Of a stretch of DNA of 64,000 nt, positions 21,784 to 30,733 are shown in pieces. The notes under the pieces are model-generated. The model did not search any database. It was not told the DNA's origin and saw only the letters and a program-made list of their open reading frames with translations. A program made the translations under genes and the position numbers. Source of the stretch: an uncultured delta proteobacterium. GTDB lineage: Bacteria; Myxococcota; Myxococcia; Myxococcales; Myxococcaceae. Where the stretch lies: assembly GCA_963796055.1 (NCBI GenBank), contig CAWCKH010000003.1, positions 448,001 to 512,000 on the forward strand, in the 5' to 3' direction. The first letter of the stretch is position 1; each line of letters begins with the position of its first letter.

Positions 21784-22287
21784 CTACCCGGTCTGCAGCC
21801 GCGCCACCGCGTCGGCGGCGAGCGTGCTCGCCAGTCGGCGAAGGGCGGCCTGACGGTTGGCCTCGGTGGTCAGCACGTCCGCTCGCAGCGCCGGCAGGTA
21901 GTCCTCCGTCCCGTTGACGTCGCTCATCGCCAGCAGCGTCTGGCCCCGGAACAGCCGGACCCGAAGGGTGGCCGACACGCGGTAGGTGAGCGCCGCCGAG
22001 GTGCCCGGAGCCAGCTGCGCCACCCCTGCGCCGACCGCGAGCAGCTCGCCCTCGAGCCGACCCTCGCTGCCCTCAGCGCCCAGATGCCCCGAGCGCGCCA
22101 GCTGCTCGCGCAGCGCCTCGGTGAAGACGCCCTCCAGCGCGGGCTCGGTGGTGCGGTTGACGACGACCGGGGCGAACACCTTCTGGATGCCCTGGGGAAA
22201 CCCCGCCCCGCCGGCGGTGAAGTGGTAGCCGCAGCCTGACTGGGCCAGGCAGGCCAGCCACAGCAGAGCCGCGCGCGCTCGCCTCAT
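21784..22287 (-). CDS. lptE: LPS assembly lipoprotein LptE family protein
   Basis: Lipobox-like QSGC followed by GYHF; NRTTEPALE; start overlaps the leuS stop, the conserved position for lptE. Confidence 0.82.
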   Translation of the reverse strand: MRRARAALLWLACLAQSGCGYHFTAGGAGFPQGIQKVFAPVVVNRTTEPALEGVFTEALREQLARSGHLGAEGSEGRLEGELLAVGAGVAQLAPGTSAALTYRVSATLRVRLFRGQTLLAMSDVNGTEDYLPALRADVLTTEANRQAALRRLASTLAADAVARLQTG

Positions 22288-24788
22288 CCGACGACGAAGT
22301 TGATCAGCCGCTTGGGGACGAAGACCACCTTGCGCAGCGCCTTGCCGGCCAGCGCCGCGCGGACCTTCTCCTCGCTCTCGGCGGCCGCCCGGACCTCGCT
22401 CTCGCCGGCGTCGGCGGCGATGCGGATCTCCCCGCGGAGCTTCCCGTTCACCTGGACGGCGTAGGGCAGCACCTCGTCGACGACGAGCGCCGGATCGAAG
22501 CTGGGCCAGCCCTGCGTGACCGTGGAGAGGCTGCCCGCGGGCCCGTAGACCTCGGCCACCGCGTCCGCGAGGTGGGGCGCGAACGGAGTCAGCAGCCGGG
22601 TGAGGAGCCGGACAGCCTCCCCCATCGCCGCCTTCTCCGCCGGGGTCTCCGGCCGCCCGGCCTCGTAGAGCGCGTTGACGAACTCCATGATGAAGGCGAT
22701 GGCGGTGTTGAAGGAGAGCCGCTCGATGGCCTCCCCCACCCGCTTCACGGCCTTGTGGGCGGCCCGGCGGATCTCCAGCGCCTTCCCCTCGAACGGGCCG
22801 TCGTACGTCGCCGTGGCGGCCACGTCCTGGTGGGCGGCGGCGAGCGCCCACAACCGGTTGAGGAACCGGTGGGCGCCCTGCATCTGCTTGTCGCTCCAGT
22901 CGAAGTCCTGCTCCGGCGGACCGGCGAAGAGCACGTAGGTGCGGACGGTGTCCGCGCCGTACTTCTCGACGAGGGTGGTCGGGGCGACGACGTTCCCCCA
23001 GCGCTTGGACATCTTTCGCCCGTCCGGGCCGTTGACGATGCCCTGGGTGACCAGCCGGGTCACCGGCTCGTCGGTCGGGACGAGCCCGAAAATCTTCATC
23101 CATCGGCTCCAGAACCGGAAATAGAGCAGGTGCATGACGGCGTGCTCGGGACCGCCGACGTAGATGTCCACCGGGAGCCAGCGCCGTGCCAGCGCCGGGT
23201 CGAACGGCGCCCGGTCGAAGTGCGGCGAGAGGTAGCGCGCCTGGTACCAGCTCGAGTCCACGAAGTTGTCCATCGTCTCCACCTCGCGGCGCGCGGGGCC
23301 GCCGCACCGGGGGCAGGTGGTCTCCACGAAGGACTTCACCTTGGCCAGCGGCGGCTCACCCTTCCCGGTGAGCACCGCCTGGGTATCGATGTCCGGCAGC
23401 CGCACCGGGAGCTGCTCGTCCGGCAAGGGGATGCCCTTCCGCTCCGGGTCGCACCGCTCGCAGTAGACGATGGGGATGGGGGTGGCCCAGTACCGCTGGC
23501 GGCTGAACCCCCAATCTTTTTGCCGGTAAGTCACGGTGGGCTTTCCCAGTCCGCGCTGCTCGAGCGCCTGGCCCATCCGCCGGCGCGCCTCCTCGGAGGG
23601 GAGCCCCGTGTACTCGCCCGAGTCGACGAGGATGCCGTCGTCGTTGAATGACCCGGTCCAGCTCTCGACCGGGCCGAGGTCTCGCCCGTCGGCCGGCCGG
23701 ATCACCTGCTTGATGGCGAGCCCGTACGCCCGGGCGAAGGCGAAGTCGCGCGTGTCGTGGGCCGGGACGGCCATGAGCGCGCCGGTGCCGTAGTCGCTGA
23801 GGACGAAGTTGGCGACCCAGATGGGCACGGGCTGGCCGGAGAAGGGATTCGTGGCGTGGGCGCCGGTGAAGACGCCCTCCTTCGGGGCACCCTCGGCGGT
23901 GCGCTCGATCTTGCCCATCGCCGCCATCCGGGCGGCGAAGGCCTCCACCTCGGCTTTCCGGCTGGGGGCGGTGAGGCTCGGGACCATCGGGTGGTCGGGG
24001 GCGAGCACCAGTGCCGTGGCGCCGTACACGGTGTCGATGCGGGTGGTGAAGACGCGGATGGGGCGGCCGTCCGCGGTCTGGAAGTCCGCCTCGGCGCCCA
24101 CGCTCTTGCCGATCCAGTTCCGCTGCGCGGAGGTGATGCGCTCGGGCCAGGCGGTGAGCGTGTCCAGCGCCTGGAGGAGGTCCTCGCTGTTCCGGGTGAT
24201 GCGGAACGCCCACTCGGGCATCTGGCGGTCCACCACCGGCGAGTCACAGCGCTCGCAGCGGCCGTCCTTCACCTGCTCGTTGGCGATGACGGTGAGGCAG
24301 CCGGTGCACCAGTTCACCTTGCTGAACCGGCGGTACACCATGTCCCGCTCCCAGAGCCGGAGGAAGAACCACTGGTTCCACCGGTAGTACTCGGGATCGC
24401 TGGTGTTGACCTCGCGGCTCCAGTCGTAGGCGAAGCCGAGCGACTTCATGGCTGCGCGGAAGCGGTCGATGTTCTCCCGGGTGCGCACCGCCGGGTGGAC
24501 GCCGTCCTTGATCGCAGCGTTCTCGGCCGGAAGCCCGAAGGCGTCCCATCCCATCGGGTGCAGGACGTCGAAGCCGCGCATCCGGTAGTAGCGGGCGTAG
24601 ACGTCGCCGATCAGGTAGTTGCGGACGTGCCCCATGTGCATCGAGCCGCTGGGGTACGGCAGCATCTCCAGCACGTACTTCTTCGGCGCGTCGGGACGGG
24701 CGTCGGCGCGGAACAGGCCGGCCTTTTCCCAGCGCTCCTGCCAGGTGGGCTCGATGGACTTCGGGTCGTACCGCTCGCTGAGCTTCAT
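22284..24788 (-). CDS. leuS: Leucyl-tRNA synthetase
   Basis: MLPYPSGSMHMGHVRNY, GWDAFGLPAENAA, YGTGALMAVPAHD, SRQRYW, KMSKR, VQVNGKLRG. Confidence 0.98.
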   Translation of the reverse strand: MKLSERYDPKSIEPTWQERWEKAGLFRADARPDAPKKYVLEMLPYPSGSMHMGHVRNYLIGDVYARYYRMRGFDVLHPMGWDAFGLPAENAAIKDGVHPAVRTRENIDRFRAAMKSLGFAYDWSREVNTSDPEYYRWNQWFFLRLWERDMVYRRFSKVNWCTGCLTVIANEQVKDGRCERCDSPVVDRQMPEWAFRITRNSEDLLQALDTLTAWPERITSAQRNWIGKSVGAEADFQTADGRPIRVFTTRIDTVYGATALVLAPDHPMVPSLTAPSRKAEVEAFAARMAAMGKIERTAEGAPKEGVFTGAHATNPFSGQPVPIWVANFVLSDYGTGALMAVPAHDTRDFAFARAYGLAIKQVIRPADGRDLGPVESWTGSFNDDGILVDSGEYTGLPSEEARRRMGQALEQRGLGKPTVTYRQKDWGFSRQRYWATPIPIVYCERCDPERKGIPLPDEQLPVRLPDIDTQAVLTGKGEPPLAKVKSFVETTCPRCGGPARREVETMDNFVDSSWYQARYLSPHFDRAPFDPALARRWLPVDIYVGGPEHAVMHLLYFRFWSRWMKIFGLVPTDEPVTRLVTQGIVNGPDGRKMSKRWGNVVAPTTLVEKYGADTVRTYVLFAGPPEQDFDWSDKQMQGAHRFLNRLWALAAAHQDVAATATYDGPFEGKALEIRRAAHKAVKRVGEAIERLSFNTAIAFIMEFVNALYEAGRPETPAEKAAMGEAVRLLTRLLTPFAPHLADAVAEVYGPAGSLSTVTQGWPSFDPALVVDEVLPYAVQVNGKLRGEIRIAADAGESEVRAAAESEEKVRAALAGKALRKVVFVPKRLINFVVG

Positions 24789-24868
24789 GGGGTGATCCGA
24801 CGGTCCTACCCGGCACGCCCCCCGGGGTGCAACGTTTCGCCCCTGCTCGGTGGTAGAGAGCCCCTCCC

Positions 24869-26173
24869 ATGGCAACCCCCGTCGTCACCATCCGGGACAT
24901 CGCCGCGTACGAGAACCAGGAGATCGAGCTGCGCGGCTGGCTCTACAACAAGCGGAGCAGCGGCAAGCTCCACTTTCTTCAAGTCCGGGACGGCACCGGG
25001 GTCATCCAGGCGGTGGTCTTCAAGAACGACGTGCCCCCCGAGCAGTTCACCCGGGCCGACCACCTGGGCCAGGAGACGGCGCTCATCGTCCGGGGGCTGG
25101 TGCGAAAGGATGCCCGGAGCCCCATCGGGTACGAGCTCTCGGTGAAGCACCTGGAAGTCGTCTCCGAGGCCAAGGACTACCCCATCACCCCCAAGGAGCA
25201 CGGGGTGGCCTACCTCATGGAGCACCGCCACCTGTGGCTCCGGTCGGTCCGGCAGAACGTCATCCTCCGGGTCCGGGCGACGGTGGAGAAGGCCATCCGG
25301 GACTACTTCGACGGCAACGGCTTCACCTTGGTGGACGCGCCCATCTTCACCCCCGCGGCCTGCGAAGGGACGAGCACGCTCTTCACCGTCCCCTACTTCG
25401 ACCTCGGCAACGCCTACCTGACCCAGTCGGGCCAGCTGTACATGGAGGCTGCGGCGGCGGCGCTGGGGAAGGTCTACTGCTTCGGCCCCACCTTCCGGGC
25501 GGAGAAGAGCAAGACCCGGCGGCACCTGACCGAGTTCTGGATGGTGGAGCCCGAGGTCGCGTACATGACCCTGGAGGAGGACATGGTCCTCGCCGAGGAA
25601 CTGGTCTCGTTCATCGTCAGCCGGGTGCTGGAGAAGCACGAGAAGGAGCTGGTCAGCGTCCTGGAGCGGGACGTGAGCAAGCTGAAGAACGTCCAGGCAC
25701 CCTTCCCCCGCATCACCTACGAGGAGGCCATCGACCGGCTCCGGGCCGCCGGGCATCCCGCGAAGTTCGGCGACGACTTCGGCGGAGACGAGGAGACGGT
25801 CCTGGCGAGTCAATTCGACCGGCCTTTGATCGTCCACCGCTACCCGGTCGAGCTGAAGGCCTTCTACTTCAAGCACGACGCGAACGACCCGCGCCTGGCG
25901 CTCGGCATGGACGTGCTCGCGCCCGAGGGGTACGGGGAGATCATCGGCGGCGGGCAGCGCGAGGATGATCTCGAGGCGCTCGAGCGGCGCATCGCCGAGC
26001 ACCACCTCCCGCGGGAGGCGTTCACCTGGTACCTGGACCTCCGGAAGTACGGAACGGTGCCGCACGCGGGCTTCGGCCTCGGGGTGGAGCGCACGGTGGC
26101 CTGGGTCTGCGGGCTCCACCACGTCCGGGAGACGATCCCCTTCGCCCGGATGATGGAGCGGATCACCCCCTAG
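24869..26173 (+). CDS. asnS: Asparaginyl-tRNA synthetase
   Basis: [56 protein letters not shown]. Confidence 0.97.
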
Positions 26174-29307: not shown

Positions 29308-29337
29308 TTGACACCGGCCAATCCGCCCCGTTATTGC
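29308..29337 (+). promoter_or_regulatory. Putative promoter of the Thr leader/thrS unit
   Basis: Perfect TTGACA at 29308-13, and the only AT-rich patch nearby (TTATTGC) 17-18 nt downstream; imperfect -10. Confidence 0.5.
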
Positions 29338-29345
29338 TTCCCTCC

Positions 29346-29423
29346 GTGAGGAATCTCGTCACCACCACCACGACCACCACCCGCGAGGCGGGTCGGAGCG
29401 TCGTGTGTGCGTCGGTGGCCTGA
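29346..29423 (+). CDS. Threonine-rich leader peptide (MRNLVTTTTTTTREAGRSVVCASVA)
   Basis: GTG AGG AAT CTC GTC ACC ACC ACC ACG ACC ACC ACC CGC...GCC TGA: seven tandem Thr codons (29361-81), ending 110 nt before a ThrRS gene. Confidence 0.88.
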   Translation: MRNLVTTTTTTTREAGRSVVCASVA

Positions 29424-29488
29424 CCTCGAGCACGCCGTCCCCGTCCCGCCCGTGGTTCCGGCGGGGCGCCCTGCTCGAGGCCTTCTTC
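29379..29488 (+). promoter_or_regulatory. Ribosome-mediated attenuator (alternative hairpins)
   Basis: 1:2 ACCCGC(29379-84)/GCGGGT(29388-93); 2:3 GGCGGGTCGG(29387-96)/CCGTCCCGCC(29441-50); 3:4 CGTCCCGCC(29442-50)/GGCGGGGCG(29460-68), enclosed by CCTCGAGCA(29424-32)/TGCTCGAGG(29472-80) and followed by CCTTCTTC. Confidence 0.78.
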
Positions 29489-29533
29489 ACCGTCCTGCCG
29501 GTCACCCGGGCCTCACCACACCGGAGCTCGACC

Positions 29534-30733
29534 ATGCTGCACGACGATGATCACCGCGCCCTCGGCCACCGCCTGAGGCTGTTCCACATGCAGGAGGAGG
29601 CGGCGGGGAGCGTGTTCTGGCACCCCCGGGGCCTGCAGCTCCTCCGCGCGCTCGAGGACCACCTAAGGCGCCTCGTCCTCCGCCAGGGGTACCGCGAGGT
29701 GCGAAGTCCTCAAGTATTGGCCCAGTCCATCTGGGAGCGCAGCGGTCACTGGAGCGTCTTCCGCCAGGGGATGCTGGTGGTGGAGGGCGAGGCTCGCGCG
29801 CTGAAACCGGTCAGCTGCCCCGGCCACATGGAGCTGGTGCGCCGGATGGCGCCGCGGTGGAACGAGCTGCCGCTTCGAATCGCCGAGTTCGGGCTCGTCC
29901 ACCGCGACGAGCCGTCGGGGGCGCTGCACGGCCTGTTCCGGCTGCGCCAGTTCTCGCAGGACGACGGCCACGTCTTCTGCCGCGAGGACCAGGTCGCCGA
30001 CGAGCTGGTCCTCTTCGTGCGGAGCCTGCGCGCGCTCTACTCGGCGCTCGGCTTCGACGGCTTCCAGATCCTGTTCTCCGGCCGCCCTCCGAACCGGCTG
30101 GGCGACGAGGCGGTGTGGGACCGGGCCGAGGCGCTCCTCGCGCAGGCGGCGCGCGCGGCCGGGCTCGCGTGGAGCTCGCAGCCCGGAGAAGGCGCCTTCT
30201 ACGGCCCCAAGCTCGAGTTCGTCCTCCAAGACCGGCTGGGGCGTGCCTGGCAGTGCGGGACGATCCAGGTGGACCTGGTCCTGCCCGAACGGTTCGCGCT
30301 GGCGTTCCCCGACGGAGCCGGCGGTCGGCATCGACCGGTCGTCCTCCACCGAGCAGTCCTCGGCAGCCTCGAGCGCTTCCTCGGCATCCTCCTCGAGCAC
30401 CACCGCGGCAGGCTCCCGGCCTGGCTCGCACCGGAGCAGGCGGTGGTCGCCAGCCTCGAGGGTGGCGTTGCCCACGCCCGGAATGCGTGCCGCGTTCTGG
30501 AGCAGGCCGGGCTGCGCGTCCGGCTCGACGTGCGCGACGAGGCGCTCTCGAAGAAGGTCGCGGATGCGCACCGTCTCGCCATCCCCTACCTGCTCGCCGC
30601 GGGGCCACGCGACGAGGCCAGGGCATCGGTGCGCGTCCGCGATCCCGCGGGTCGGCAGCGCGACGTCCCTCTCGACGCGCTCGGCCCGGAGCTCGTCCGG
30701 GCCTGCGCCCCTCCCCCGCTCGAGCTGGAGTGA
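29534..30733 (+). CDS. thrS: Threonyl-tRNA synthetase, short form (catalytic and anticodon domains only)
   Basis: GGAG RBS and ATG 29534; begins directly at DHRALG; FWHPRG, SGHW, KPVSCPGH, HRDEPSGALHGLFRLRQFSQDDGH, GEGAFYGPKLEF, WQCGTIQVD, LHRAVLGSLERF, PAWLAPEQ. Confidence 0.93.
   Translation: MLHDDDHRALGHRLRLFHMQEEAAGSVFWHPRGLQLLRALEDHLRRLVLRQGYREVRSPQVLAQSIWERSGHWSVFRQGMLVVEGEARALKPVSCPGHMELVRRMAPRWNELPLRIAEFGLVHRDEPSGALHGLFRLRQFSQDDGHVFCREDQVADELVLFVRSLRALYSALGFDGFQILFSGRPPNRLGDEAVWDRAEALLAQAARAAGLAWSSQPGEGAFYGPKLEFVLQDRLGRAWQCGTIQVDLVLPERFALAFPDGAGGRHRPVVLHRAVLGSLERFLGILLEHHRGRLPAWLAPEQAVVASLEGGVAHARNACRVLEQAGLRVRLDVRDEALSKKVADAHRLAIPYLLAAGPRDEARASVRVRDPAGRQRDVPLDALGPELVRACAPPPLELE

Follow-up and report, generated by a model that had tools for sequence, protein, structure and literature searches.

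Leader-peptide attenuation is a textbook mechanism, as known from thrL of Escherichia coli, and in ermC an upstream signal reshapes hairpins to free the Shine-Dalgarno sequence (SD). The myxobacterial leader described here, which lies in front of a short threonyl-tRNA synthetase (ThrRS) gene, shares with the classical attenuators (E. coli thrL and pheST, Streptomyces trpS and leuS) a short ORF, tandem cognate codons and the 1:2/2:3/3:4 pairings, but it has no U-tract terminator, carries two extra segments that reach to the SD and has no Rfam match. With the ermC and cat translational attenuators and the SD-sequestering ileS T-boxes of Actinobacteria it shares an upstream signal that would rearrange hairpins and free the SD; unlike in these systems, the signal here would be stalling at cognate codons and the modelled relay comprises six segments. 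Leader control is also reportedly found for trpRS1 of Streptomyces, which Vecchione and Sello are said to have described in 2010 as transcriptional attenuation. The available text of PMC1262725 covers both the classical leader attenuation of the synthetase genes pheST, trpS and leuS and the sequestration of the SD by the ileS T-box of Actinobacteria.

A thrL leader preceding thrS has been described in Streptomyces lividans (Droste et al. 2021; available text of PMC8079986). As in myxobacteria, it is a leaderless Thr leader followed by a hairpin without a U-rich tail; it has two Thr codons compared to 5-10 in the myxobacterial leaders, and its mechanism is left open in that text. The two elements show no sign of homology. 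Regarding the enzyme, trpRS1 is likewise a second synthetase that is induced on inhibition of the first; however, this indolmycin-resistant auxiliary TrpRS is full-length and its resistance has been shown (PMC9437257, in excerpt), whereas the myxobacterial ThrRS is short and its resistance putative. Second ThrRSs used under stress are also known as T2 of Anabaena, which edits poorly, and ObaO (PMC4787780 and PMC11252418, both in excerpt). In contrast to the short ThrRS, T2 is under Zur control and still has a degenerate editing domain (PMC4787780), and ObaO has a Ser at position 463 that the short ThrRS family lacks (PMC11252418). Finally, biosynthetic enzymes show a cognate bias, a protein needed during shortage of an amino acid avoiding that amino acid; here the protein is a tRNA synthetase, and in the available text of PMC4209129 the only "synthetase" is tryptophan synthetase.

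No paper on the myxobacterial element or on the short ThrRS clade was found in a search of an open-access library. The abstract of Lopatovskaya et al. (2010) reportedly names thrS among predicted attenuation genes and is said to cover delta-proteobacteria, and may thus contain a prior prediction of myxobacterial thrS leaders. The supplements of Korolev et al. (2016), as far as available, list myxobacterial genomes but not thrS, their leader-gene tables being external. The principle is textbook and a thrS leader is already in print for Streptomyces.

The window, which is the whole 64,000-nt stretch of DNA that was analysed, contains a conserved Thr-sensing leader in front of a spare, editing-less and Thr-poor ThrRS, and this arrangement is real. 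Its features are as follows.

29308..29313, + strand: predicted -35 box TTGACA, placed 38 nt ahead of the start codon of the leader and accompanied by a weak -10 box
29346..29423, + strand: leader ORF of 25 codons, with no purine-rich stretch ahead of its GTG
29361..29381 (core 29376-29384), + strand: segment 1, the Thr-codon run doubling as a pairing strand
29387..29420 (core 29387-29396, GUG-rich extension 29400-29411), + strand: segment 2, partner of segment 1 or 3
29424..29450 (core 29441-29450), + strand: segment 3, 5' arm of a long hairpin
29458..29480 (core 29458-29468), + strand: segment 4, 3' arm of the hairpin, partner of segment 3 or, over 11 bp, of segment 5
29481..29488, + strand: pyrimidine tail CCTTCTTC, 4 U of 8, no consensus U-tract
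29491..29501, + strand: segment 5, anti-Shine-Dalgarno arm that can instead pair with segment 4
29520..29526, + strand: segment 6, containing the SD GGAG (29523-29526) 7 nt before the ATG
29534..30733, + strand: short ThrRS paralogue of 399 aa, catalytic core and anticodon-binding domain only, with one Thr

The leader ORF reads from GTG 29346 to TGA 29423 and its sensor run (29361-29381) consists of seven Thr codons in tandem, six of them ACC and one ACG, as the first-pass annotation had found for a 25-aa ORF upstream of thrS. No such run arose when the intergenic region was dinucleotide-shuffled 5000 times. Furthermore, short ORFs with a start 34-39 nt downstream of TTGAC were collected throughout the genome, and of the 20 that passed a homopolymer filter the window leader was the sole one with seven Thr. 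A consensus promoter scan of the region gave 0 sites; across the family, a -35-like word is found 34-39 nt before the in-frame start codon of 79 of 88 leaders, and this fixed distance suggests leaderless translation. The leader ORF is thus probably translated leaderless, judging from its sequence. Elsewhere in the genome, another probably leaderless ORF of 34 codons, Met-rich and ending in Cys codons, lies at about 139476 on the + strand of contig C5, about 220 nt before a 430-residue ORF that we take to resemble O-acetylhomoserine sulfhydrylase, and it is a possible sulfur-amino-acid leader.

The distribution of the leader was examined in 254 loci, 91 of which were classed as short ThrRS. Using five or more Thr in a 12-codon upstream window as criterion, the leader was found before 88 of the 91 short loci, so that homologues lacking Thr-rich leaders, which the annotation had named as grounds for rejecting its reading, are not the case. 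The three exceptions are truncated or misclassed: one has a flank of 120 nt, and the other two are fragments at 44-47% identity. Three more short loci set aside by the classifier carry the leader on inspection. These loci are not independent, the 87 with a usable start reducing to 37 at under 85% identity. Near-identical loci are present in Myxococcus xanthus. As a control, an ATG-started Thr-rich short ORF was found upstream of 0 of 19 Myxococcota full-length thrS genes, and 3 of the 19 had five or more Thr in some upstream window.

Across the family, the in-frame stop is kept and the third bases of the Thr codons vary (ACC, ACG, ACT). Towards the C-terminus of the peptide the reading frame differs between genera and the RNA remains similar; segment 2, being kept across different reading frames, is therefore conserved as RNA. 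Within one genus, the leaders L217-L218, L241, L242 and L252 have their 3' half in two frames, ending in GGSGLVRGVS or AGVDSCVK, hence the peptide tail is not conserved. We also considered that the ACC repeat is a mere RNA pairing strand or a protein-binding site, the leader being untranslated as a sensor. The run does pair extensively with segment 2, and for the leuA LEU element codon changes are reported to have no effect on regulation (PMC1262725, in excerpt). However, across the family the start codon is in frame and at a constant spacing from the -35 box, a stop follows in frame and the Thr codons differ in their third base; the gene product itself is a Thr-poor ThrRS. This makes such a role highly improbable. 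Control of the short thrS by a Thr-sensing leader is, to our mind, very probable.

A covariance model built from 24 leaders had one strong hit in the own genome. Run against 151 genomes, it had hits in 25, of which 23 lie at short thrS loci also returned by the phylum-wide search described below. The other two are a weak one (E 0.002), which looks like a chance match, and one before a lone anticodon-binding domain. The latter locus (L282, G038:C19, 1165-1503, - strand) has the same Thr leader before a 113-residue stand-alone domain without catalytic core (PF03129, 24.8 bits for a cut-off of 21), which is present in 1 of 9 genomes of its family and has three short homologues in the protein database; its product could be a remnant or a separate tRNA-binding protein. 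At two further loci, L248 (G351) and L249 (G356), the short thrS match begins at residues 31 and 87 with the leader intact, and these thrS frames may be broken near their start.

Outside the short family, Thr-rich ATG-started short ORFs were also seen upstream of full-length thrS in Xanthomonadales and Burkholderiales (L019-L078). A short ORF that has at least three Thr among its first eight codons precedes 35 of 80 full-length thrS loci, that is 35 of the 61 outside Myxococcota, and the eight printed examples have a hairpin with a U-tract; these are likely classical Thr attenuators on housekeeping thrS.

The enzyme itself contains, according to Pfam, only the core and the anticodon domain, the TGS and editing domains being absent. 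Its TIGR00418 match starts at profile position 170 of 565 with 378.6 bits for a cut-off of 383.65, and the alignment to E. coli ThrRS begins at residue 243 of the latter. On contig C2 the same genome encodes a second ThrRS of 642 residues with the tRNA_SAD domain, 42% identical over the core, which supports the annotated back-up role of the short form beside a full-length enzyme. Among 61 related genomes the short form is present in 11, the own one included, and all 11 contain a further match at about 43% identity. A search of 401 genomes of the phylum gave 103 matches at E up to 1e-108, 94 of them in the window's own family, and the last four look like full-length ThrRS. Named carriers are Myxococcus, Corallococcus, Stigmatella, Sorangium, Nannocystis and one Steroidobacteraceae genome. 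A metagenome scan gave 80 loci, nearly all of the full-length type. A midpoint-rooted tree built from 37 short cores and 150 full-length ones places the short forms in one clade with a support of 0.998.

With one Thr in 399 residues, the short ThrRS has the lowest Thr fraction in a filtered set of 1736 ORFs with at least 300 codons (mean 5.0%). The housekeeping ThrRS has 15 Thr in the corresponding region and 15 more in its N-terminal part. The median of 115 near-full-length homologues of the short ThrRS is 3 Thr, and the one retained here, T482, is invariant in 37/37 short and 150/150 full-length sequences. The depletion is weak or absent in some branches, with 6-17 Thr in 10 of 37 sequences: Nannocystis and Kofleriaceae have 6-12, and in the Steroidobacteraceae protein, with 17, it is absent. 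Apart from Thr, no residue of the short ThrRS falls below the 12th percentile of the genome. Lys, Asn, Tyr and Ile are also depleted when compared with the housekeeping core; this was rejected as a signal, these residues being at the 12th-22nd percentile and hence in the normal range of the genome.

The residues expected of an active ThrRS core were compared in E. coli numbering. The Zn ligands C334, H385 and H511 as well as R363, Q381, D383, Y462 and Q484 are each kept in 37/37 short forms. Of R609 and R583, which we take to be conserved anticodon-domain residues of ThrRS, the former is kept in 34/37 and the latter in 3/37 short forms as compared with 148/150 full-length ones. Besides the loss of R583 in 34/37, the changes specific to the clade include, in the pocket, M332V in 36/37 short forms (M in 150/150 full-length), Y313F in 35/37 (F in 17/150 full-length) and N333S in 29/37. 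A single-sequence structure prediction was set aside given its mean pLDDT of 39.

No conserved gene neighbourhood was found by eye in 19 loci. In the window, a di-haem cytochrome c peroxidase-like gene (MauG/MbnH-like by weak matches; 30746 onward, - strand) is convergent with the short thrS, from which it is separated by 12 nt that contain no terminator, and some close relatives have the same neighbour. Within 5 kb upstream lie asnS (24869-26173, + strand) and, divergently, a probable leuS (22284-24875, - strand, assigned by sequence), and at locus L082 the short thrS directly follows asnS.

We next turn to the RNA. In the unconstrained fold of the window leader, segment 1 pairs with 2 and segment 3 with 4 (z = -2.2; 2 of 200 shuffles equally stable), the long hairpin being closed by a perfect 9-bp stem between 29424-29432 and 29472-29480. 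Segments 1-4, this stem and the tail lie at the positions given by the first-pass annotation, whose view that the tail is not a strong U-tract is also shared here (CCTTCTTC having 4 U of 8). Segments 5 and 6, absent from that first description, extend the element beyond the 3:4 hairpin to the SD, and the 4:5 duplex of the window leader comprises 11 pairs. Against Rfam, the region gave five weak unrelated matches up to E 10, none at gathering score, and no match to the Thr_leader and T-box covariance models.

Two sets of leaders were used for modelling. In the 32-leader tests (duplex, control-gene and U-tract), the anchor shortened segment 3 in some leaders and left out 5 of 37; the stall and opening-cost tests on all 37 used corrected anchors, with which 2:3 forms without a ribosome in 5/37 leaders compared to 2/32 before. 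With the RNA extending to the end of segment 3, a ribosome stalled in the middle of the Thr run leads to 2:3 pairing in 37/37 non-redundant leaders in the folding model, as compared with those 5/37 without ribosome and 2/37 with a ribosome over segment 2. The proposal that stalling on Thr codons favours 2:3, and the folding with and without the ribosome-covered segment that was suggested to check it, are thus borne out in silico. Once the RNA reaches the end of segment 4, 3:4 is formed in 36/37 leaders without ribosome, in 37/37 with the ribosome over segment 2 and in 16/37 with the stalled one. With the RNA ending just before the SD, stalling gives 2:3 in 22/37 and 4:5 in 22/37; 4:5 is also still formed in 9/37 leaders, the window included, when the ribosome is past segment 2, which is the wrong direction for a relay. 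In the window, stalled nascent RNA forms 2:3 first and then 2:3 together with 4:5. This ON state is the best fold up to segment 5 and lies at full length 4.9 kcal/mol above the OFF state, hence it would be a kinetic state.

Duplexes between neighbouring segments are more stable than shuffles, with mean z of -2.5 (1:2), -2.1 (2:3), -2.8 (3:4) and -1.9 (4:5), and the 5:6 duplex is weak (mean z -1.0); non-neighbour duplexes are no better than shuffles (z -0.1, -0.6 and +0.9; n = 32 for all). The covariation in homologous leaders that had been called for was found as double changes in both sets of helices. In 24 of the 37 leaders, picked because alignable, the ON helices (2:3, 4:5) are 91% paired with 9 double changes, matched by 3/500 shuffles, and the OFF helices (1:2, 3:4, 5:6) 87% paired with 25 double changes, matched by 0/500, with helices defined from the same sequences and related sequences being able to beat such shuffles. 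Taken singly in these 24, 4:5 is 90% paired and shows compensatory changes in 3 of its 11 pairs; 5:6 is 76% paired and covaries weakly. The consensus fold of a loose leader alignment has only 5 pairs. In its 1:2/2:3/3:4 part the leader, as modelled, is ordinary attenuator logic.

Two outputs of this switch were weighed. In the one, transcription terminates at the 3:4 hairpin, either by a U-poor intrinsic mechanism or with Rho, segments 5 and 6 being secondary. This would agree with 3:4 exceeding the other helices in stability (mean about -30 kcal/mol in 32 leaders) and in covariation, with cognate 3:4 pairing exceeding heterologous pairing in 31/32 leaders and with the clear U-tracts at the end of Thr leaders of full-length thrS in other phyla. 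However, the terminator scan of the window gave no site with a U-run, so that the "complete attenuator" of the first-pass annotation does not hold as an intrinsic terminator. On a strict count, 0/32 leaders have at least five U among the 8 nt that follow the hairpin, and a lenient one near the hairpin gives 5 U in 8 nt in 3/32, the few that would suit termination. Moreover, termination leaves segment 5, complementary to both segment 4 and the SD, without a role. One raw RNA-seq run on a Myxococcus-type locus, apparently from an unstranded library, gave 467 reads on both strands with a mild rise over the leader (depth 74-84 compared to 48-62 in the flanks), no step and no clustered read ends; the rise could be read as termination, but it runs to the SD and not to the hairpin base. 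Altogether, termination as the output appears somewhat unlikely.

The other output is translation initiation through a 4:5/5:6 relay, which is favoured over termination since the U-tract is missing in most leaders and segments 5 and 6 reach the SD. In the folding models, the cost of opening the ribosome-binding site in 37 leaders is 13.8 kcal/mol in the OFF state, 8.9 in the ON state and 11.6 with segment 4 shuffled (14.5, 6.4 and 9.9 for the window leader). The ON cost is below the OFF cost by over 1.5 in 30/37 leaders and below the shuffle in 27/37. In the default fold, the GGAG is unpaired under 0.3 in 29/32 leaders and almost fully paired (unpaired under 0.05) in 59% of the 32 compared to 13% of the 243 genes used as control. 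Other models speak against the relay. These genes cost only a little less to open than the OFF state (12.2 vs 14.0). In full-length leaders at equilibrium, stalling at the first or middle Thr codon raised SD accessibility by >0.2 in only 1/26, at best in 4/26, and in a truncated leader model in 5/32. On all this modelling, we hold it slightly more probable than its opposite that the output is translation initiation.

The sequence of events for initiation control would then be as follows. Given the spacing to the -35 box, transcription would start at or near the leader GTG. With ample Thr-tRNA, or without a ribosome, segment 3 is predicted to pair with 4, leaving segment 5 to bind the SD region, and thrS would be poorly translated, with Rho polarity perhaps as a secondary effect. 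With scarce Thr-tRNA, a ribosome would stall on the Thr codons and cover segment 1, and the emerging segment 2 would pair with 3; the freed segment 4 could then capture segment 5 and make the ribosome-binding site cheaper to open, as a kinetic state. The resulting ThrRS, which is almost without Thr codons, may thereby be translatable during the shortage that induces it, and from its residues and domains it should charge tRNA-Thr without editing of its own. Of the first interpretation, the conserved Thr leader, the 2:3 pairing on stalling and the back-up ThrRS are thus retained, and termination as the output is not supported in the form proposed.

As for the purpose of the spare enzyme, the likeliest benefit is restored charging when the housekeeping ThrRS is inhibited or outpaced. 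An inducible ThrRS resistant to borrelidin, obafluorin or a similar inhibitor would fit either output. The clade-wide M332V and Y313F changes are at inhibitor-contact positions: Met332 and Tyr313 contact or move for obafluorin (PMC9880928, in excerpt), and the human equivalents of 332 and 313, with an inferred offset, are among the borrelidin contacts altered in resistant archaeal enzymes (available text of PMC4389257). An extra enzyme would also be of little use without free threonine and useful if the main one is blocked; the genome has two thrC matches above cut-off and so probably makes threonine. On the other hand, G463, which confers obafluorin resistance when changed to Ser (PMC11252418, in excerpt), is kept in 36/37 short forms, and the borrelidin-resistance sites of E. 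coli (PMC4389257, in excerpt) are mostly unchanged (H309 in 37/37, L489 in 30/37). No biosynthetic cluster was seen at the locus. We regard inhibitor resistance as a real possibility that falls a little short of an even chance, roughly on a par with simple relief of starvation; a higher affinity is a further candidate.

Alternatively, the enzyme could serve deliberate mistranslation, placing Ser on tRNA-Thr in starvation and letting ribosomes pass Thr codons. It has no editing domain, its pocket carries M332V and N333S, and a ThrRS stripped of its N-terminal domains does not edit (PMC4787780, in excerpt). The genome has two tRNA_SAD domains, that of the full ThrRS and another in a frame of 961 codons (probably AlaRS), and since both are in larger proteins there is no free-standing editor of that family. 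However, the housekeeping ThrRS of Anabaena can edit Ser-tRNA-Thr in trans (PMC4787780, in excerpt) and the pocket changes could equally tighten selectivity, hence we find this purpose improbable. The widest reading is an emergency translation module in which a leaderless Thr sensor and a six-segment relay would drive a Thr-purged, editing-less and pocket-remodelled (M332V, N333S, Y313F) ThrRS, which would keep tRNA-Thr charged where the main one fails, via resistance to prey inhibitors or via purposeful Ser loading; as a whole, we consider it unlikely.

The Thr-purged ThrRS offers a clear example of a tRNA synthetase that avoids its cognate amino acid, and with its altered pocket it may be naturally resistant to ThrRS inhibitors or take part in regulated mistranslation. 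If the relay is true, the leader would represent cognate-codon attenuation acting via translation initiation without a terminator, a type overlooked by terminator-based searches. For the myxobacteria, it is an uncatalogued amino-acid sensor that can be tested in a model lineage where starvation sensing drives development.
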